Source of the DNA: Escherichia coli
GTDB lineage: Bacteria; Pseudomonadota; Gammaproteobacteria; Enterobacterales; Enterobacteriaceae
Length of the DNA: 64,000 bases
Strand: one strand, 5' to 3'
Assembly: GCF_044324785.1 (NCBI RefSeq)
Contig: NZ_CP172127.1
Positions 4,978 to 29,700 of this stretch are shown here, piece after piece. Both the position numbers and the translations under genes were made by a program. The stretch's first letter is position 1; the number at the start of each line of letters is the position of its first letter. The notes under the pieces were generated by a model. It was not told where the DNA came from, did not search any database, and saw only the letters and a program-made list of their open reading frames with translations.

Positions 4978-5667
4978 TTACTCACTCTCTGCCGGTAATA
5001 CTGGCATCCAGTCAATCGGTTTCTCGCCACGTTGTTCCAGCCACTGATTTGCCAGCACAAAATGGTTGCAGCCAAAGAACCCGCGATGCGCAGAAAGCGG
5101 TGATGGATGCGGCGCTTTCAGTACGTGATGGCGTTGCTTATCAATAATCGCCCCTTTCTTTTGCGCATGTGAGCCCCACAACAAAAACACCACGCCTTCG
5201 CGATGCTGGTTAATCAGGCTGATGACTTTATCGGTGAAGGTCTCCCAGCCGAGGCTGGCGTGGGAATGCGCCTGACCTGCGCGAACCGTCAACACAGTAT
5301 TGAGTAGCAGAACGCCCTGACGCGCCCAGCTTTCAAGATAACCATGATTAGGGCGGGTGAAACCGGGAATAGTATTTTCCAGCTCTTTATACATATTCAG
5401 CAGTGACGGCGGTGTCGCAATGCCGGGGCGAACGGAAAATGCCAGACCATGCGCCTGTCCCGGTCCGTGATAAGGATCCTGGCCGAGAATCACCACTTTA
5501 ACGTCACCCAACTCTGTAAAGCGGAACGCGTTAAAAACATCCTTTTGTGGCGGATAGATAGTGACGCCGGACTGCCGCTCGCTGGCGACGGTCTGTAGGG
5601 TATTAAGAAAATAGGGTTGTTGCTTCTCTTCAGCCAGCACGTCATGCCAGGTTAATTCGTTTGCCAT
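4978..5667 (-). CDS. ung: Uracil-DNA glycosylase
   Basis: 229 aa; GQDPYH active-site motif; full-length match to recalled Ung. Confidence 0.95.
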
Positions 5668-5797
5668 CTCGCTCTCCCGCGAATCTTCAATCCGCCTAGC
5701 TTAACTGCTTCTTTCTACAGAACAAAATCATGCTCATTTTTTAGACTTAAACGAGTGCAAAAAAATGTAAATTGGTAAAATTTCACACCTGCATAAG

Positions 5798-5864
5798 TTG
5801 ATGTAAAACAATAAAATCCATTTGCGACCATACTTGATGTGTGGTTTTTATTGATTTAAATCAA
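5798..5864 (+). promoter_or_regulatory. grcA promoter with two FNR boxes: TTGATgtaaAACAA (5798-5811) and TTGATttaaATCAA (5851-5864)
   Basis: Two TTGAT-N4-ATCAA-type palindromes with centres 53 bp apart, about 108 bp upstream of the grcA ATG; matches the recalled -93.5/-40.5 FNR architecture of yfiD/grcA. Confidence 0.75.
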
Positions 5865-5971
5865 AGATTCAAGGGTGTTTGAGGAGTATATATACACTCA
5901 AGCAACAATGGTTTTACCAATTGGCCGCGACAGGCTGAACAAATCAAATAATTTTGCCGGGGAGGCATCAC

Positions 5972-15119: not shown

Positions 15120-16919
<1,800 letters not shown>

Positions 16920-16934
16920 CCCTTAGGAGTTGGC

Positions 16935-17909
16935 ATGGCGAATATGTTTGCCCTGATTCTGGTGATTGCCACACTGGTGACGGGCATTTTATGGTGCGTG
17001 GATAAATTCTTTTTCGCACCTAAACGGCGGGAACGTCAGGCAGCGGCGCAGGCGGCTGCCGGTGACTCACTGGATAAAGCAACACTGAAAAAGGTTGCGC
17101 CGAAGCCTGGCTGGCTGGAAACTGGTGCTTCTGTTTTTCCTGTGCTGGCTATCGTATTGATTGTGCGTTCGTTTATTTATGAACCGTTCCAGATCCCGTC
17201 AGGTTCGATGATGCCGACTCTGTTAATCGGTGATTTTATTCTGGTAGAGAAGTTTGCTTATGGCATTAAAGATCCTATCTACCAGAAAACGCTGATCGAA
17301 ACCGGTCATCCGAAACGCGGCGATATCGTGGTCTTTAAATATCCGGAAGATCCAAAGCTTGATTACATCAAGCGCGCGGTGGGTTTACCGGGCGATAAAG
17401 TCACTTATGATCCGGTCTCAAAAGAGCTGACGATTCAACCGGGATGCAGTTCCGGCCAGGCATGTGAAAACGCGCTGCCGGTCACCTACTCAAACGTGGA
17501 ACCGAGCGATTTCGTTCAGACCTTCTCACGCCGTAATGGTGGGGAAGCGACCAGCGGATTCTTTGAAGTGCCGAAAAACGAAACCAAAGAAAATGGAATT
17601 CGTCTTTCCGAGCGTAAAGAGACACTGGGTGATGTGACGCACCGCATTCTGACAGTGCCGATTGCGCAGGACCAGGTGGGGATGTATTACCAGCAGCCAG
17701 GGCAACAACTGGCAACCTGGATTGTTCCGCCGGGACAATACTTCATGATGGGTGACAACCGCGACAACAGCGCGGACAGCCGTTACTGGGGCTTTGTGCC
17801 GGAAGCGAATCTGGTCGGTCGGGCAACGGCTATCTGGATGAGCTTCGATAAGCAAGAAGGCGAATGGCCGACAGGTGTGCGCTTAAGTCGCATTGGCGGC
17901 ATCCATTAA
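16935..17909 (+). CDS. lepB: Signal peptidase I
   Basis: 324 aa; catalytic Ser in SGSMMPTL and Lys in KRAVGLPGD. Confidence 0.97.
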   Translation: MANMFALILVIATLVTGILWCVDKFFFAPKRRERQAAAQAAAGDSLDKATLKKVAPKPGWLETGASVFPVLAIVLIVRSFIYEPFQIPSGSMMPTLLIGDFILVEKFAYGIKDPIYQKTLIETGHPKRGDIVVFKYPEDPKLDYIKRAVGLPGDKVTYDPVSKELTIQPGCSSGQACENALPVTYSNVEPSDFVQTFSRRNGGEATSGFFEVPKNETKENGIRLSERKETLGDVTHRILTVPIAQDQVGMYYQQPGQQLATWIVPPGQYFMMGDNRDNSADSRYWGFVPEANLVGRATAIWMSFDKQEGEWPTGVRLSRIGGIH

Positions 17910-17922
17910 TAGCCCATCTTCG

Positions 17923-17962
17923 TTCACGTTGTCGCCGTTATGGCGACAACGTGAATTATTTA
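17923..17962 (+). terminator. Rho-independent terminator after lepB
   Basis: 14-bp perfect stem TTCACGTTGTCGCC / GGCGACAACGTGAA followed by a T-rich tract. Confidence 0.8.
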
Positions 17963-17984
17963 TGAGATAAATCTCCCGTGGCTA

Positions 17985-18013
17985 ACGACATCCCCCGTCG
18001 TTGTGTATAGAAT
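17985..18013 (+). promoter_or_regulatory. Putative rnc promoter (ACGACA-N17-TAGAAT)
   Basis: Sigma70-like -35/-10 pair about 170 bp upstream of the rnc ATG, ahead of the leader stem-loop. Confidence 0.4.
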
Positions 18014-18054
18014 ATTCCCCCGAAGTTTAAGGTTGGCACCTCCAGGTTGCCACG

Positions 18055-18148
18055 GCACACGAAACAGCGTTGGTCCCCATATACCGGTAAACTGAAACTG
18101 CAGCGAAGCAGTTAGCAGAGCCATGTATATCAGGTCTGTTTCGTGTGC
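18055..18148 (+). promoter_or_regulatory. rnc 5' leader stem-loop (RNase III autoregulatory target)
   Basis: Perfect 13-nt arms GCACACGAAACAG (18055-18067) and CTGTTTCGTGTGC (18136-18148) enclosing 68 nt, 34 nt upstream of the rnc ATG. Confidence 0.7.
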
Positions 18149-18151
18149 TGA

Positions 18152-19764
<1,613 letters not shown>

Positions 19765-19775
19765 GAGTAACTCCG

Positions 19776-20504
19776 ATGGAAGGCTGGCAGCGCGCATTTG
19801 TCCTGCATAGTCGCCCGTGGAGCGAAACCAGCCTGATGCTGGACGTCTTCACGGAGGAATCGGGTCGCGTGCGTCTGGTTGCCAAAGGCGCACGCTCTAA
19901 ACGCTCTACTCTGAAAGGTGCATTACAGCCTTTCACCCCTCTCTTGCTACGTTTTGGCGGGCGTGGCGAAGTCAAAACGCTGCGCAGTGCTGAAGCTGTC
20001 TCGCTGGCGCTGCCATTAAGCGGTATCACGCTTTACAGCGGTCTGTACATCAACGAACTTCTCTCCCGCGTACTGGAATACGAGACGCGCTTCTCTGAAC
20101 TCTTTTTCGATTACTTGCACTGCATTCAGTCACTTGCAGGTGCCACTGGTACGCCAGAACCCGCGCTGCGCCGCTTTGAACTGGCACTGCTCGGGCATCT
20201 GGGCTATGGCGTCAATTTTACTCATTGTGCGGGTAGCGGCGAGCCGGTAGATGACACCATGACGTATCGTTATCGCGAAGAAAAAGGGTTTATCGCAAGC
20301 GTCGTTATCGACAATAAAACGTTCACCGGAAGGCAGTTAAAAGCGTTAAACGCGCGGGAATTTCCTGACGCAGACACACTGCGCGCCGCGAAACGCTTTA
20401 CCCGCATGGCGCTTAAGCCGTATCTTGGCGGTAAACCATTAAAGAGCAGGGAACTGTTCCGGCAGTTTATGCCTAAGCGAACGGTGAAAACACATTATGA
20501 ATGA
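19776..20504 (+). CDS. recO: DNA repair protein RecO
   Basis: 242 aa; full-length match to recalled RecO. Confidence 0.95.
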
Positions 20505-20515
20505 TGAGGATTGTC

Positions 20516-21247
20516 ATGGCTGAATTACTGTTAGGCGTCAACATTGACCATATTGCAACGCTGCGTAACGCACGCGGTACTGCTTACCCGGATCCGGTGC
20601 AGGCGGCGTTTATTGCCGAGCAGGCGGGAGCAGACGGCATTACCGTGCATTTACGTGAAGATCGCCGCCACATTACTGACCGCGATGTGCGCATCCTGCG
20701 TCAGACGCTGGATACCCGCATGAATCTGGAGATGGCGGTGACCGAAGAGATGCTGGCGATCGCCGTTGAGACGAAGCCACATTTTTGCTGCCTGGTACCG
20801 GAAAAGCGTCAGGAAGTAACAACCGAAGGCGGCCTGGACGTCGCTGGACAGCGTGAAAAAATGCGCGATGCCTGCAAACGTTTGGCGGAGGCCGGGATCC
20901 TGGTTTCTCTGTTTATCGACGCCGATGAAGAGCAGATCAAAGCTGCGGCAGAGGTTGGCGCACCGTTTATCGAGATCCACACCGGTTGCTATGCTGATGC
21001 CAAAACTGACGCCGAACAGGCGCAAGAGCTTGCGCGTATCGCCAAAGCCGCGACCTTTGCCGCAAGTCTCGGTCTGAAAGTTAACGCCGGACACGGTCTG
21101 ACATATCACAACGTGAAAGCCATTGCCGCCATTCCTGAGATGCACGAACTGAATATCGGTCATGCCATTATTGGTCGTGCAGTGATGACCGGACTGAAAG
21201 ATGCGGTGGCAGAAATGAAGCGTCTGATGCTGGAAGCGCGTGGCTAA
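20516..21247 (+). CDS. pdxJ: Pyridoxine 5'-phosphate synthase, 243 aa
   Basis: ORF 20501..21247; internal ATG 20516 ([21 protein letters not shown]...). Confidence 0.95.
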
Positions 21248-21627
21248 TGGCAATATTAGGTTTAGGCACGGATATTGTGGAGATCGCTCGCATCGAAGCG
21301 GTGATCACCCGATCCGGTGATCGCCTGGCACGCCGCGTATTAAGCGATAACGAATGGGCTATCTGGAAAACGCACCACCAGCCGGTGCGTTTTCTGGCGA
21401 AGCGTTTTGCTGTGAAAGAAGCGGCGGCAAAAGCGTTTGGCACCGGGATCCGCAATGGTCTGGCGTTTAATCAGTTTGAAGTATTCAATGATGAGCTCGG
21501 CAAACCACGGCTACGGCTATGGGGTGAGGCATTAAAACTGGCGGAAAAGCTCGGCGTTATAAATATGCATGTAACGCTTGCCGATGAGCGCCACTATGCT
21601 TGTGCCACGGTAATTATTGAAAGTTAA
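21247..21627 (+). CDS. acpS: Holo-[acyl-carrier-protein] synthase
   Basis: 126 aa; [17 protein letters not shown]-terminus; start overlaps the pdxJ stop (TAATG). Confidence 0.95.
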
Positions 21628-21644
21628 AAATAATACCGTTCTCT

Positions 21645-21726
21645 TTATAAAGTAAAACCCCCGAACTGGTAAGGAACGGGGGTTTTACTTTTTAACTTTA
21701 ATTTTGTGCAGCACACGATTCCAACG
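21645..21726 (-). ncRNA. ohsC: Probable OhsC antitoxin sRNA of the shoB type I toxin-antitoxin pair (boundaries approximate)
   Basis: Plus-strand 21706-21724 (GTGCAGCACACGATTCCAA) repeats shoB 5'-UTR 21955-21973 at 18 of 19 positions, so a minus-strand transcript is antisense to the shoB leader; candidate minus-strand -10 CATAAT (complement of 21733-21738); terminator at 21652-21688. Confidence 0.35.
21652..21693. terminator. Bidirectional intrinsic terminator (acpS on plus strand; probable OhsC 3' end on minus strand)
   Basis: GTAAAACCCCCG / CGGGGGTTTTAC 12-bp stem with T-rich flanks on both strands. Confidence 0.75.
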
Positions 21727-22048
21727 GAAATGATTATGGATCAATTTCGTTATCCTGTACAAGCAACTTGCAATCTCTGACATAAAAAACGCGAGCCTTT
21801 ACGAAGAAATCGACATTGATGAAAAGATTAACGTGACCGCTTTTTGATAAGTACATTAAAATCGGTTTCGTTATTGGCAATTTTGCTGTGCTTTACACCA
21901 TGCCACTGAATTCCCCCATTGAAACGAGTGGTGTCGTCAAAGCTCTGGTGTGGAGTGCAGCACTCGATTCCAATAACTCGCACGTTCAGTTTTGGGGAGA
22001 TGTAAGGGCTAATCTGAACGGCTGCATTCCTTGTTTAAGGAAAAACGA

Positions 22049-22129
22049 ATGACTGATTGCCGATACCTGATTAAACGGGTCATCAAAATCATCATTGCTG
22101 TTTTACAGCTGATCCTTCTGTTCTTATAA
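22049..22129 (+). CDS. shoB: Type I toxin ShoB, 26 aa (MTDCRYLIKRVIKIIIAVLQLILLFL)
   Basis: ATG 22049 to TAA 22127-22129, preceded by AAGGAAAAA; hydrophobic single-helix peptide; lies in the acpS-yfhL gap; below ORF-track cutoff. Confidence 0.85.
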   Translation: MTDCRYLIKRVIKIIIAVLQLILLFL

Positions 22130-22146
22130 CATAAGGAAACGTACTT

Positions 22147-22185
22147 AAGGCGCGTCAGGTTAACCAGCCAGGCGCGCCTTTAATA
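22147..22185. terminator. Hairpin after shoB (AAGGCGCG ... CGCGCCTT)
   Basis: GC-rich inverted repeat 22147-22154 / 22173-22180 downstream of the shoB stop. Confidence 0.55.
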
Positions 22186-22322
22186 ATTATAAATAAATGT
22201 CTGGGCAGATATTATATAAATTCATTTGGTGAATAATTATGCTAATGTCATCAATTAAATAAATATAATGGCGTTAAGGCTTCCCTGTAAAATAATTAAC
22301 ACTCTACCTCCAGAGTAGAATA

Positions 22323-22619
<297 letters not shown>

Positions 22620-22638
22620 TTATACGCGCATTCTTTAC

Positions 22639-23487
22639 TCAGACCAGTTTTTTCACCAGCGCTTCACTATGACGAATACGTTCTGGTGCCAGTTCCAGAT
22701 CCTGCTGAATCAGCGCAATGAACAGCAAATCCGTTAACATTCCCTGCGCGTGGCAAGCAGAGATTGAAGCACTGTTTGTCGCTTGTTCTTCGGCAATGGT
22801 ATACAGGCAATGAGAAGCACGCTGTTGCAGGGCATTGGGAGTAAAGCCGGTAATCGCCAGCACTTTTCCGCCCACTCGCAGCATCTCATCTGCCGCCAGG
22901 TTTAACTCGCGTCGTACACCGGTGTAGGAAATGGCTAATAACAGATCGTCAGGGGACGACGCCTGTACTGTAGCGAGTAGCGCATGCATATCGCGCACTG
23001 CGGCAGCATTGAAGCCAATCTTCATCAGCTTCCAGGCAAAGTTTTGCGCCACCAGACCCGAAGCGCCAATACCGGTCAGAATTATCCGCCGTGCAGAGCG
23101 CAACATTGCCACGCACTCATGCAGCTTCTCTTCACTATTAACGTTTAGCGTTGCGTACATGGCGGCAGTATTTTCTTTAATCAGTTTTTCGCCGACCAGC
23201 CGTAACGGATCATCACCGCGGATTTGGTTATGAATGGGCACGGAGGGAGATTCCGGCTGGCTTGCCAGCGCTTCACTCAACGCCAACTTAAGTGCCGGAA
23301 AACCTTTATAGCCGAGTTTTTGCGCAAACTTCACGACGCTGGACTGACTGACTCCGGCTTCGTTGGCCAGTTGCTGAGAGCTTAAATGGCGCGCCGTATC
23401 AGGTTGTAGCAGCAGATAATCCGCCAGTTTTTTATCACTCTGGGCAAGCCCCTGGTAACGCTGACGGATACGAAGTAAGCCGTTCAT
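22639..23487 (-). CDS. yfhH: RpiR-family (HTH + SIS domain) transcriptional regulator YfhH, 282 aa
   Basis: ORF 22639..23559; internal ATG (cat 23485-23487) gives MNGLLRIRQRYQGL... Confidence 0.8.
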   Translation of the reverse strand: MNGLLRIRQRYQGLAQSDKKLADYLLLQPDTARHLSSQQLANEAGVSQSSVVKFAQKLGYKGFPALKLALSEALASQPESPSVPIHNQIRGDDPLRLVGEKLIKENTAAMYATLNVNSEEKLHECVAMLRSARRIILTGIGASGLVAQNFAWKLMKIGFNAAAVRDMHALLATVQASSPDDLLLAISYTGVRRELNLAADEMLRVGGKVLAITGFTPNALQQRASHCLYTIAEEQATNSASISACHAQGMLTDLLFIALIQQDLELAPERIRHSEALVKKLV

Positions 23488-23695
23488 ATCTTTCCTCGCG
23501 ATGAAATAGTGGCGACAACAGGCAATATGAGACACACGCGAGTGAATTTTATATTCCATTGCCGCTAATTGCCATGAATTAAAAATTCCAGTTAGCCATG
23601 ATGCGGTCGATTGTTGCCGGAAAAGTGATGATCTATCTGTTAGGCTATGTAGTAGCGAAAATTAATCAGGATGTTTCAGTCCAGAGGAGTATGGT

Positions 23696-24331
23696 TTGGC
23701 AACTCACGAGCGTCGTGTGGTGTTTTTTGACTTAGATGGAACATTGCATCAGCAGGATATGTTCGGCAGTTTTCTGCGCTATTTACTGCGTCGCCAACCG
23801 CTGAATGCGTTACTTGTCCTGCCGTTGTTGCCGATTATAGCCATTGCGTTATTGATAAAAGGTCGTGCGGCACGCTGGCCGATGAGTCTGCTTCTGTGGG
23901 GATGCACTTTTGGTCACAATGAAGCGCGTTTGCAGGCGTTGCAGGCCGATTTCGTACGCTGGTTTCGTGACAATGTTACCGCCTTTCCGCTGGTTCAGGA
24001 GCGATTAACCACCTACCTGTTAAGTTCCGATGCTGATATCTGGTTGATTACCGGCTCTCCGCAGCCGCTGGTTGAAGCGGTTTATTTCGATACGCCCTGG
24101 CTGCCGCGGGTTAATCTTATCGCCAGTCAGTTTCAGCGTGGCTATGGTGGTTGGGTATTGACGATGCGTTGCCTCGGGCATGAGAAGGTCGCGCAACTGG
24201 AGCGTAAAATCGGCACGCCACTGCGGTTGTACAGTGGCTATAGCGACAGTAATCAGGACAACCCGCTGCTTTATTTCTGTCAGCATCGCTGGCGAGTAAC
24301 CCCGCGCGGTGAACTCCAGCAACTGGAATAG
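23696..24331 (+). CDS. pgpC: Phosphatidylglycerophosphatase C (YfhB), TTG start
   Basis: 211 aa; HAD motif FFDLDGTL; TTG at 23696 preceded by GAGGAG. Confidence 0.85.
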   Translation: MATHERRVVFFDLDGTLHQQDMFGSFLRYLLRRQPLNALLVLPLLPIIAIALLIKGRAARWPMSLLLWGCTFGHNEARLQALQADFVRWFRDNVTAFPLVQERLTTYLLSSDADIWLITGSPQPLVEAVYFDTPWLPRVNLIASQFQRGYGGWVLTMRCLGHEKVAQLERKIGTPLRLYSGYSDSNQDNPLLYFCQHRWRVTPRGELQQLE

Positions 24332-24343
24332 AGTAAAGCATAG

Positions 24344-26445
<2,102 letters not shown>

Positions 26446-26610
26446 TTAGTTAATTCTCTGTGTCGTGCGCGTCCCAGCTTGAAAAAACGTAATAATAGTG
26501 AAAGGTTTACTCATAAATGAGCGGCATTTTGCGTAAACCTGCGCCAGTTGGCAACTTATTACAGCCATTGGCGGCACGCGTTGCTAATTCTCGATGGTGA
26601 TTTTATTTCC

Positions 26611-26649
26611 ACGCAAACGGTTTCGTCAGCGCATCAGATTCTTTATAAT
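26611..26649 (+). promoter_or_regulatory. purL promoter: PurR box ACGCAAACGGTTTCGT (26611-26626) plus -10 TATAAT (26644-26649)
   Basis: Close match to the PurR operator consensus placed over the -35 region, upstream of the purL ATG. Confidence 0.75.
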
Positions 26650-26702
26650 GACGCCCGTTTCCCCCCCTTGGGTACACCGAAAGCTTAGAAGACGAGAGAC
26701 TT

Positions 26703-29700
26703 ATGATGGAAATTCTGCGTGGTTCGCCTGCATTGTCGGCATTCCGAATCAACAAACTGCTGGCACGTTTTCAGGCTGCCAGGCTCCCGGTTCACACTAT
26801 TTACGCCGAGTATGTCCATTTTGCTGACCTCAATGCGCCGTTAAACGATGATGAGCACGCACAACTTGAACGCCTGCTGAAATATGGCCCGGCACTCGCC
26901 AGCCACGCCCCGCAAGGCAAACTCCTGCTGGTGACCCCGCGTCCTGGCACCATCTCTCCCTGGTCTTCGAAAGCGACCGATATTGCCCATAACTGCGGGC
27001 TGCAACAGGTAAACCGTCTTGAGCGCGGCGTGGCTTACTATATAGAAGCCGGTACGCTGACCAATGAACAATGGCAGCAGGTTACCGCTGAACTGCACGA
27101 CCGCATGATGGAAACGGTCTTTTTTGCTTTAGATGATGCAGAGCAGCTGTTTGCACACCATCAACCGACTCCGGTCACCAGCGTTGATTTGCTGGGGCAG
27201 GGCCGTCAGGCGCTAATCGACGCTAACCTGCGTCTTGGCCTGGCACTGGCGGAAGATGAAATTGACTATTTGCAGGATGCTTTCACAAAGCTTGGTCGTA
27301 ACCCGAACGACATCGAACTGTATATGTTTGCCCAGGCGAACTCCGAGCACTGCCGCCACAAAATTTTTAACGCCGACTGGGTTATCGATGGTGAACAGCA
27401 GCCGAAATCGCTGTTTAAGATGATCAAAAACACCTTCGAAACCACGCCGGATCACGTTCTCTCTGCTTATAAAGATAACGCCGCCGTAATGGAAGGTTCT
27501 GAAGTGGGCCGCTACTTTGCTGACCACGAAACGGGCCGCTACGATTTCCATCAGGAACCGGCGCATATTCTGATGAAAGTCGAAACTCACAACCACCCGA
27601 CTGCGATTTCTCCGTGGCCGGGCGCGGCGACCGGTTCCGGCGGTGAAATCCGCGATGAAGGTGCCACCGGACGTGGCGCAAAGCCGAAAGCTGGTTTGGT
27701 TGGTTTCTCCGTTTCCAACCTGCGAATTCCTGGCTTCGAACAGCCGTGGGAAGAAGATTTCGGTAAGCCTGAGCGCATTGTCACCGCGCTGGACATCATG
27801 ACCGAAGGCCCGCTGGGCGGCGCGGCATTTAACAACGAATTTGGTCGTCCGGCACTGAACGGCTACTTCCGTACTTATGAAGAAAAAGTGAACAGCCACA
27901 ATGGCGAAGAGCTGCGCGGTTATCACAAACCGATCATGCTGGCGGGTGGGATCGGCAACATTCGCGCCGATCACGTACAAAAAGGCGAGATCAACGTTGG
28001 TGCGAAGCTGGTCGTTCTCGGCGGCCCGGCAATGAACATCGGTCTTGGCGGCGGCGCGGCGTCTTCCATGGCATCTGGTCAGTCTGATGCCGACCTCGAC
28101 TTTGCTTCCGTACAGCGCGACAACCCGGAGATGGAGCGTCGCTGCCAGGAAGTGATCGACCGTTGCTGGCAGCTTGGTGATGCCAACCCAATCCTGTTTA
28201 TCCACGACGTTGGCGCAGGCGGTCTTTCTAACGCCATGCCGGAACTGGTGAGCGACGGCGGGCGCGGCGGTAAATTTGAACTGCGCGATATCCTGAGCGA
28301 CGAACCGGGCATGAGCCCGCTGGAAATCTGGTGTAACGAATCCCAGGAACGCTACGTGCTGGCGGTTGCTGCCGATCAGTTACCGCTGTTTGACGAACTG
28401 TGTAAGCGTGAACGAGCGCCATACGCGGTGATTGGCGAGGCCACCGAAGAATTACATCTTTCTCTGCACGATCGTCATTTTGATAATCAACCCATCGATC
28501 TGCCGCTGGACGTGCTACTCGGCAAAACGCCGAAGATGACTCGCGATGTACAAACGCTGAAAGCGAAAGGCGACGCGCTGGCCCGTGAAGGGATCACCAT
28601 CGCTGACGCGGTGAAACGCGTGCTGCATCTGCCGACCGTGGCGGAGAAAACTTTCCTGGTGACCATTGGTGACCGCAGCGTAACCGGCATGGTAGCGCGC
28701 GATCAGATGGTGGGTCCGTGGCAGGTGCCGGTCGCTAACTGCGCGGTCACTACCGCCAGCCTCGATAGCTACTACGGCGAAGCGATGGCAATTGGCGAGC
28801 GTGCGCCGGTTGCGCTGCTGGATTTCGCCGCCTCTGCCCGTCTGGCGGTCGGTGAAGCGTTAACCAATATTGCCGCAACACAGATTGGCGATATCAAACG
28901 CATTAAACTTTCCGCGAACTGGATGGCAGCGGCAGGTCATCCAGGCGAAGATGCGGGCCTGTATGAAGCCGTTAAAGCTGTGGGCGAAGAGCTTTGTCCG
29001 GCGCTGGGCCTGACGATCCCGGTGGGTAAAGACTCTATGTCGATGAAAACCCGCTGGCAGGAAGGTAACGAAGAGCGCGAAATGACGTCGCCGCTGTCGC
29101 TGGTGATTTCTGCATTTGCCCGTGTGGAAGATGTGCGTCACACCATCACGCCGCAGCTTTCTACCGAAGATAACGCATTACTGCTGATTGATCTGGGCAA
29201 AGGCAATAACGCGCTGGGCGCAACGGCGCTGGCGCAGGTTTATCGTCAGCTTGGCGACAAACCGGCAGATGTACGCGACGTCGCGCAACTGAAAGGTTTC
29301 TATGACGCGGTTCAGGCGCTGGTAGCACAGCGTAAGCTGCTCGCGTACCACGACCGCTCTGATGGCGGCCTGCTGGTAACGCTGGCGGAAATGGCCTTTG
29401 CTGGTCATTGCGGCATTGACGCGGATATCGCCACTCTGGGTGACGATCGCCTGGCGGCGTTGTTTAACGAAGAACTGGGTGCGGTGATTCAGGTTCGAGC
29501 CGCTGACCGTGAAGCCGTTGAAGTGGTACTGGCACAGCATGGGCTTGCTGATTGCGTCCATTATGTTGGCCAGGCGGTTTCCGGTGACCGTTTTGTGATT
29601 ACCGCCAACGGGCAGACTGTATTCAGCGAAAGCCGCACTACGTTGCGTGTCTGGTGGGCAGAAACTACCTGGCAGATGCAGCGCCTGCGTGACAACCCGG

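Follow-up and report, generated by a model that had tools for sequence, protein, structure and literature searches.

The shoB-ohsC pair of Escherichia coli is a type I toxin-antitoxin locus, reportedly described by Fozo et al. in 2008. Intergenic regions that occur in 'switched' forms are said to have been recognized by Oren et al. in 2014. AT-rich DNA of foreign origin is targeted by H-NS in xenogeneic silencing, and untranslated 3' tails whose transcription is stopped by Rho have been mapped in K-12 (Adams et al. 2021, PMC7815308). Here, we analyzed an AT-rich interval that lies between the shoB terminator and yfhL in a 64-kb stretch of E. coli DNA (hereafter, the window) and that resembles each of these systems in part. 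We consider it probable that the interval is a passive spacer and a Rho-terminated untranslated tail of yfhL, located at the near-neutrally evolving end of an inserted type I toxin-antitoxin module that is specific to the lineage. According to this explanation, the interval would be non-coding filler without a dedicated sequence-specific function.

The features of the locus are listed in Table 1. The gene order agrees with the RefSeq annotation of homologous loci, and the 12 kb around the interval show 95-99% identity to all 5425 matching complete E. coli genomes, the best reaching 98.9%. A first-pass annotation of the window had delimited the AT-rich segment by the shoB terminator and the 3' end of yfhL. 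These boundaries are borne out by the terminator stem, by the mRNA 3' end known from K-12 and by the yfhL stop codon. K-12 Term-seq revealed a strong shoB 3' end at 2700059(-) in three of three conditions (PMC7815308), which corresponds to window position ~22187, 9 nt past the shoB hairpin. Moreover, the terminator stem carries compensatory substitutions between haplotypes. The sequence quoted in the first-pass annotation spans 22181-22332 and slightly exceeds the stated coordinates, by 5 nt at the left end and by 10 nt at the right end.

Table 1. Features of the acpS-yfhL region in the window (coordinates are window positions).
Feature	Position	Strand	Basis or remark
recO	19776-20504	+	ORF list
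pdxJ	end at 21247	+	ORF list
acpS	21247-21627	+	ORF list
Insert, 694 bp, lineage-specific, between acpS and yfhL	21629-22322	.	GC 0.38; holds ohsC, shoB and the AT-rich interval
TTAAA direct repeat, left copy	21624-21628	.	Junction alignment; takes in the acpS stop codon
TTAAA direct repeat, right copy	22323-22327	.	Junction alignment; takes in the yfhL stop codon (TTA on +)
ohsC antitoxin sRNA	21649-21725	-	Rfam RF02495, 101.3 bits, E 9e-17, full length
shoB toxin CDS, 26 aa	22049-22129	+	ORF list; RefSeq annotation of homologous loci
shoB intrinsic terminator	22149-22187	+	Stem 22149-22178 (inverted repeat), then T-tract; mRNA 3' end ~22187
AT-rich non-coding interval, 135 bp	22188-22322	.	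GC 0.27; without ORF, terminator or Rfam match
Dimorphic ('switched') patch, 116 bp	22197-22312	.	Two discrete haplotype classes in E. coli
Longest invariant block, AATAAATATAA	22258-22268	.	All nine alleles, including E. albertii and L004 type
Sigma-70 promoter-like site TTTACA-18-TATATT	22262-22291	- (yfhL strand)	10/12 matches; predicted
yfhL, 4Fe-4S dicluster ferredoxin, 86 aa	22323-22583	-	ORF list; RefSeq annotation of homologous loci
yfhL stop codon	22323-22325	-	ORF list
yfhH	low-coordinate end 22639	-	ORF list
pgpC	start 23696	+	ORF list

The segment 22186-22322 had been described as far more A/T-rich than its surroundings, and our data confirm this: its GC content is 0.270 versus 0.524 for the 64-kb window. 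Among the 63,864 overlapping 137-bp windows of the stretch, it has the 23rd lowest GC, and the minimum itself (0.263) belongs to the 137-bp window starting at 22178, at the same locus. Only one other locus in the 64 kb, 5721-5896, is comparably low. GC contents nearby are 0.49 for the shoB terminator zone, 0.46 for yfhL and 0.38 for the entire acpS-yfhL gap.

The first-pass annotation had also seen no ORF, no hairpin terminator and no recognizable operator in this segment, and our scans agree with it on each count. There is no ORF of at least 20 aa in 22186-22322, a terminator scan of 21500-22800 on both strands returned 0 sites, and consensus scans for IHF, CRP, Nac and Lrp gave no match in the interval. 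One match to a very degenerate Fis core was found at 22228-22242, which is not kept in K-12. When 21000-23500 was scanned against Rfam 15 (E<=1), no match fell in 22186-22322; those obtained were ohsC and weak sub-threshold matches on that same ohsC stretch. Likewise, the K-12 record NC_000913.3, which includes curated small proteins, has zero annotation between yfhL and shoB. RNA folding of the interval did not differ significantly from 200 dinucleotide shuffles (z-score 0.03 for the plus strand and -1.26 for the minus strand). As yfhL-sense RNA, the interval is weakly structured, with a minimum free energy of -22.9 kcal/mol over 135 nt, and the hairpin at its center in the window allele, which pairs 22211-22232 with 22248-22269, is out of register in the alternative, L004-type allele described below. 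A structured non-coding RNA or small RNA in the interval is not supported.

The same holds for a very small protein, for which the interval offers micro-ORFs of 7-16 codons. The peptide MLMSSIK is preceded by a Shine-Dalgarno-like GGTGA motif and always stops at an invariant TAA, and the minus-strand micro-ORF MNLYNICPDIYL is unchanged in frame and length among alleles of the window type, the L004 type and E. albertii. However, no micro-ORF is common to all alleles, most lack a Shine-Dalgarno sequence, the 12-codon ORF MNLYNICPDIYL has no start codon in K-12-type alleles, and nothing of at least 20 aa is present or, in NC_000913.3, annotated. We regard a small protein as barely credible; the non-conservation of the micro-ORFs has already largely refuted it. 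A degenerate second copy of shoB was also considered, because 17 nt match the shoB CDS in inverted orientation and one micro-ORF, starting with GTG, is hydrophobic. This candidate was rejected: the interval aligns with the rest of the insert below the level of shuffles (p=0.94 and 0.98 for the two strands), and the GTG micro-ORF is not conserved among alleles. Local alignment detected no similarity of the interval to the remainder of the insert, ohsC and shoB included.

To place the interval in a wider context, we located acpS and shoB in 80 loci encoding YfhL relatives, with one genome per species. Among the 49 Enterobacterales loci that have acpS beside yfhL in convergent orientation, 29 show a 4-nt overlap of the two genes, as in Arsenophonus (...GATAAAATTTAACTTTCCATAAT...) and, equivalently, in Citrobacter, Enterobacter, Kosakonia, Pluralibacter and others. 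Other lineages carry small fillers of 6-150 bp between acpS and yfhL or, in two Yersinia species, 1.8 kb. Within this sample, which is without Salmonella, Shigella and E. fergusonii, shoB was found only in Escherichia loci. One of these, labeled E. coli (L012), has a 695-bp acpS-yfhL gap, and the window shares its layout. In E. albertii, the contig stops short of acpS; the distance between shoB and yfhL is unchanged and the first 140 bp past yfhL have a GC content of 0.24.

The junctions of the filled site can be read directly from the window. A 694-bp insert (21629-22322) lies between TTAAA direct repeats, with its left junction between GAAAGTTAAA and AATAATACC and its right junction between GTAGAATA and TTAAATTTTATCC. 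The empty site rebuilt from these flanks, ...GAAAGTTAAATTTTATCC..., agrees with real empty sites such as that of Arsenophonus (L051). The insert is therefore a presence/absence polymorphism at a precise site with a TTAAA duplication. Such a repeat is the trace expected of a staggered-cut insertion, and it is equally demanded by selection, because both stop codons were contained in the ancestral TTAA(A) and their retention would give the same repeat. We found no convincing terminal inverted repeats at the ends of the insert and, in the comparison of E. coli genomes, no second copy of the interval, which is single-copy in each genome.

The first-pass annotation had suggested a remnant of an acquired element, and a stronger form of this claim holds: the whole 694-bp gap, with the interval, is absent from the other genera sampled. 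The acquired, AT-rich segment comprises ohsC, shoB and, at the end nearest yfhL, the interval. We propose that it entered the genome of an Escherichia ancestor precisely where acpS and yfhL overlap by 4 nt, and that the insertion would have duplicated TTAAA, leaving acpS and yfhL each with a stop codon. Plasmids and phages were searched for a source of the insert. The four plasmid matches are mislabeled chromosomes, and a pattern scan of viral contigs yielded chance AT-rich matches plus two contigs that contain the host flanks of a prophage integrated in yfhL.

After its arrival, the interval seems to have evolved under little constraint. When a 210-bp query centered on it was compared with 5425 E. 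coli genomes, identity was 95-99% in 25 genomes, 90-95% in 3559, 80-90% in 1263 and 60-80% in 578, versus 97-100% for the flanking genes. Rather than being uniformly conserved and untranscribed, which the first-pass annotation had named as the finding that would speak against it, the interval is a divergence hotspot and lies between yfhL and a yfhL-strand Rho termination region. For ordinary alleles, its identity to the window allele follows that of the third codon positions of yfhL and acpS: 0.93 versus 0.94 for K-12, 0.87 versus 0.85 for O145 and 0.84 versus 0.86 for L012. Since interval identity tracks third codon positions, we infer that these alleles are near-neutral and diverge at approximately the synonymous rate. 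The interval would thus drift under an AT-biased composition.

More importantly, the interval exists in two discrete forms. An alternative form, the L004 type, is present at >=95% identity in 530 of 5426 E. coli genomes (521 at >=99%), among them an O15:H18 strain of ST69. Another 4889 genomes share 60-80% identity with this form, and intermediates are absent. Comparison of loci L003 and L004 (strains A10 and SW4848) revealed 47 differences within 22197-22312, comprising 21 transitions, 25 transversions and 1 gap, versus 7 differences in the remaining ~1.3 kb aligned. Despite these 47 changes, the alternative allele is nearly the same in length (136 versus 135 bp) and GC content (0.29 versus 0.26-0.27). 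It is 61-69% identical to the other alleles, whereas the E. albertii allele is 83-90% identical to them. Plain drift does not explain the alternative allele.

In about 10% of E. coli, the 116-bp core would have been replaced by a highly diverged homologous allele. This patch was probably imported by recombination through its conserved flanks, which consist of the terminator and TTTAATAATTATAAATAA on one side and of GCAGAATATTAAATTTTA and yfhL on the other. We found no donor of the L004-type patch. Two other origins were rejected: the reverse complement showed no match by eye, which disfavors an inversion, and a quasi-palindrome (template-switch) origin explains at most ~10 of the 47 changes. 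The two forms are divergent sequences with <90% identity between the same flanking genes, which is the definition of a switched intergenic region.

Natural disruptions show that the interval can be interrupted or partly lost. Strain CT01 carries an IS1 in the interval, with a 9-bp target duplication at 22229-22237, and a second, IS5-like element after ~22299. In SCPM-O-B-9504, an IS5-like element is accompanied by a deletion of 21832-22241, so that shoB and the leftmost third of the interval are lost. In total, 32 genomes cover less than 80% of the interval query. The gap between yfhL and shoB has also served as an engineered CAST integration site (PMC8464060), and the evidence presented here supports its use as a neutral integration site. 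yfhL itself has been reported as an insertion site of Stx2b prophages. The interval was rejected as the phage attB, as host-phage junctions lie at the yfhL 5' end: phage records share window positions 22536-22660, and IMG/VR contigs break at 22573.

What, then, is transcribed across the interval? On the yfhL strand, K-12 Term-seq called no 3' end between the yfhL stop codon and ohsC in three conditions, and a Rho termination region was assigned to 2700120(+) with a Rho score of 3.75 and p=2.3e-8 (PMC7815308). The counts upstream and downstream of this region were 90 and 29 in untreated cells and 120 and 145 with bicyclomycin (PMC7815308). This bicyclomycin-sensitive loss of downstream transcription in the published K-12 data is Rho-dependent termination. 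The K-12 position corresponds to window ~22126, antisense to the end of shoB and ~60 nt past the interval; Rho scores are computed over 800-nt windows, so that the position is approximate and a start of the terminated transcript at yfhL is not distinguishable from one inside the interval. The yfhL-sense RNA of the interval contains 14% C and 13% G, and its central 78-nt windows contain 14% C and 8% G. Though unstructured, this RNA is poor in C and looks like unprotected RNA rather than a classical rut site.

We infer that yfhL read-through is the transcript that Rho terminates. According to this model, yfhL would lack an intrinsic terminator of its own, RNA polymerase leaving yfhL would travel through the interval and the reverse side of the shoB hairpin, and Rho would stop yfhL transcripts around or just beyond the shoB stop codon. 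The interval would be passive in two ways, as the separator of the shoB terminator from yfhL and as the untranslated tail of yfhL. It could be argued that the reverse side of the shoB hairpin, or the interval, acts as an intrinsic, possibly bidirectional terminator for yfhL, as bidirectional hairpins are frequent between convergent genes and the strong shoB stem (22149-22178) persists when the yfhL-sense RNA is folded. However, what follows the hairpin on the yfhL strand is UUAAGUACG rather than a U-tract, and the terminator scan was empty. Furthermore, the gap yielded no yfhL-strand 3' end in any of the three conditions, and transcription beyond it is bicyclomycin-sensitive. Intrinsic termination of yfhL is therefore very unlikely, and Rho-dependent termination of read-through is the explanation we retain.

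The main loose end against the passive-spacer explanation is the longest invariant block (Table 1). Its 11 columns are invariant across nine alleles (permutation p=0.005), it is kept even in the 40%-diverged allele, and it overlaps -10-like hexamers on both strands. Sequence comparison suggests that at least one short element in the interval may be constrained. One rival explanation posits a yfhL-strand promoter with its -10 in this block, producing an unannotated, Rho-terminated RNA antisense to the shoB 3' end and CDS. The promoter-like site TTTACA-18-TATATT matches at 10 of 12 positions (22291-22262, minus strand), its TATATT lies in the sole block that is invariant in all alleles, and one Rho termination region lies antisense to shoB (PMC7815308). 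In addition, a Nac overexpression dataset showed shoB up 82-fold and yfhL down ~50-fold (PMC5217608), which fits antagonism of convergent transcripts, but tiny genes dominate this table, which may be noisy.

Against such a promoter, promoter-like sites are not enriched in the region (5 versus 3.2 +/- 2.0 in shuffles, that is, at chance level), and both K-12 (ATTACT) and the L004 type (TTATAG) have a poor -35. An RNA from the yfhL strand has no stable 3' end called in K-12 Term-seq, no significant fold and no Rfam family, and the Rho signal is explained by yfhL read-through alone. We therefore consider the promoter improbable, along with the second antisense layer on the toxin that it would imply. 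Also improbable is that yfhL-strand transcription, arising from read-through and possibly from the allele-variable promoter and passing the reverse side of the shoB terminator to enter shoB until Rho ends it, forms an OhsC-independent convergent brake on shoB that is tuned by the allele switch, or that the switch tunes the fate of yfhL mRNA. If this were true, a 116-bp allele switch present in ~10% of E. coli would tune the shoB brake or yfhL mRNA fate.

Nucleoid proteins offer an explanation that is compatible with the passive spacer. The interval may be an H-NS nucleation or binding site, through which the AT-rich insert is coated and both the toxin locus and spurious promoters are damped. 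Its AT content is 73% (62% for the whole insert), its TpA density is 0.156 versus 0.042 for the window, and matches of 7-8/10 to the H-NS nucleation motif TCGATAAATT occur at 22190, 22213, 22251 and 22256, the one at 22213 reaching 8/10. The insert is lineage-specific, acquired DNA, and IS1 and IS5 insertions cluster in the interval. IS1 and IS5 are known to favor AT-rich, H-NS-bound DNA. However, IPOD-HR data contain no EPOD boundary in 2,698,000-2,701,999 in six conditions, which weighs little because EPODs need ~1 kb or more. The strength of the shoB mRNA 3' end in all three Term-seq conditions indicates that the locus is not silent, and the insert offers little length for a stable H-NS filament. 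H-NS binding is thus possible, although we lean against it.

The first-pass annotation had also raised the possibility of curved DNA, and this did not hold up. An intrinsically curved architectural element built from phased A-tracts has nothing in its favor except the high AT content. The interval has only one A4 tract. Shuffled sequences show at least as much AA/TT periodicity near 10.5 bp, the power of the interval at 9.5-11.5 bp falling below the shuffle mean (p=0.90). We consider curvature of this kind highly improbable.

Taken together, the passive-spacer explanation accords the interval itself little weight. All properties of this unannotated spacer belong to known kinds, namely acquired AT-rich DNA, a Rho-terminated 3' tail, a switched intergenic patch and an IS target. 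The shoB-ohsC module becomes datable and precisely delimited as a 694-bp insertion in the 4-nt acpS/yfhL overlap, providing a clean example of the arrival of a chromosomal type I toxin-antitoxin locus.

Compared with the shoB-ohsC type I toxin-antitoxin locus itself (PMC2887945), the interval belongs to the same 694-bp insert, abuts the shoB terminator and shares the narrow distribution in Escherichia. However, it lies outside both transcripts (the shoB mRNA ends at ~22187 and ohsC occupies 21649-21725), it is similar to neither gene, and it contains neither a toxin ORF nor an antisense pairing region.

Like the Rho-terminated untranslated 3' tails of K-12 (PMC7815308), the interval is untranslated, weakly structured and downstream of a stop codon, with no intrinsic terminator and with a bicyclomycin-sensitive drop in coverage shortly after it. 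It differs from them in that its RNA is A/U-rich and C-poor, not C-rich and G-poor, and in that the mapped Rho region lies ~60 nt beyond it, inside antisense shoB, in data from another strain, K-12.

The interval shares with H-NS-targeted acquired DNA a GC content far below the genome average, a high TpA density, a lineage-specific distribution and the attraction of IS1 and IS5. The short length of the segment and the clear expression of the neighboring toxin mRNA set it apart from typical targets of xenogeneic silencing.

Finally, the interval can be compared with 'switched' intergenic regions (Thorpe et al. 2018, Piggy, PMC5890482). Its two forms differ from these in that they are still alignable (~64% identity, equal length), and the exchange involves only 116 bp in a double-terminator gap, with no downstream promoter exchanged. 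As in switched regions, two discrete, divergent sequences are found between the same conserved flanking genes, with no intermediates and with one class near-uniform (>=99% in 521 genomes). This two-state, ~40%-diverged 116-bp patch in otherwise 99.5%-identical DNA provides a natural test case for any effect of switching in double-terminator gaps.

The terminator stem of shoB, the toxin gene, occurs in two haplotypes, and allele comparison showed that the substitutions between them are paired and compensatory. The form found in the window is that of E. albertii, and the other form is carried by K-12 and O157. The ohsC zone (ohsC being the antitoxin sRNA) together with the shoB 5' UTR likewise falls into two haplotype families, with the window sharing 88-92% identity with K-12 and O145 and 96-100% identity with the others. 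The ohsC/5' UTR haplotypes combine mosaically with those of the terminator and of the AT-rich spacer between this terminator and the yfhL 3' end, in combinations that differ by strain, suggesting recombination within the 694-bp Escherichia-specific insert that carries all of these elements.

Features in and around the acpS/yfhL junction and elsewhere in the window
Feature	Position (window)	Strand	Detail
AT-rich stretch outside the insert	5721-5896		minimum GC 0.27
Second ohsC_RNA match	21606-21691	+	34.9 bits
ohsC zone and shoB 5' UTR	21628-22048		two haplotype families
Term-seq 3' end in shoB 5' UTR	approximately 21905		K-12 2700341(-)
shoB terminator stem	22149-22178		GGCGCGTCAGG...CCAGGCGCGCC vs GGTGCGTCCGG...TCGGACGCACC
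IS insertion points in spacer	22229-22237, ~22242, ~22299		loci L005 and L010
Prophage integration site, yfhL 5' end	~22536-22583		

The spacer itself has received independent IS1 and IS5-like (ISKpn26) insertions in two E. coli genomes, one of them accompanied by a deletion that removes shoB. Beyond Escherichia, other genera have independently gained filler DNA at the convergent acpS/yfhL junction (loci L016, L024, L028 and L045-L058). These segments measure 6-150 bp, some of them being REP-like, as in Citrobacter youngae, while those of two Yersinia species reach about 1.8 kb. Such independent fillings make the junction a recurrent landing site.

A composition scan of the 64 kb revealed only one other stretch that matches the AT-richness of the spacer, located in the gap after the minus-strand ORF 4978-5667. 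Over 12 kb of the window (16000-28000), all complete E. coli genomes compared showed 95-99% identity, and none in the collection searched was closer than 98.9%; judged from these identities, the source strain is an outlying lineage, or is itself a close relative that bears another label.

An Rfam scan detected a second, sub-threshold ohsC_RNA match on the strand opposite to ohsC (gathering score, 50), which is the palindromic ohsC terminator in reverse reading. This palindrome lies directly after the acpS stop, and when read in reverse it may double as a terminator for acpS. In K-12, both exponential-phase conditions gave a strong Term-seq 3' end within the shoB 5' UTR (PMC7815308). It lies 144 nt ahead of the ORF and possibly arises by processing or attenuation of the toxin mRNA. 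Nac overexpression in K-12 raised shoB 82-fold and lowered yfhL about 50-fold, and a single ChIP-seq peak within yfhL was tied to both changes (PMC5217608). The two convergent genes changed in opposite directions; the table reporting this is rich in tiny genes, so the effect may be noise.

We also observed a prophage integration site at the yfhL 5' end. Window positions 22536-22660 (125 bp at 100% identity) are common to three Escherichia phage records, and homology to the window stops at 22573 in two IMG/VR contigs, one of which (L155) encodes a YfhL with a changed N-terminus, MSLLITKR... In the literature, yfhL is given as a Stx2b prophage site.
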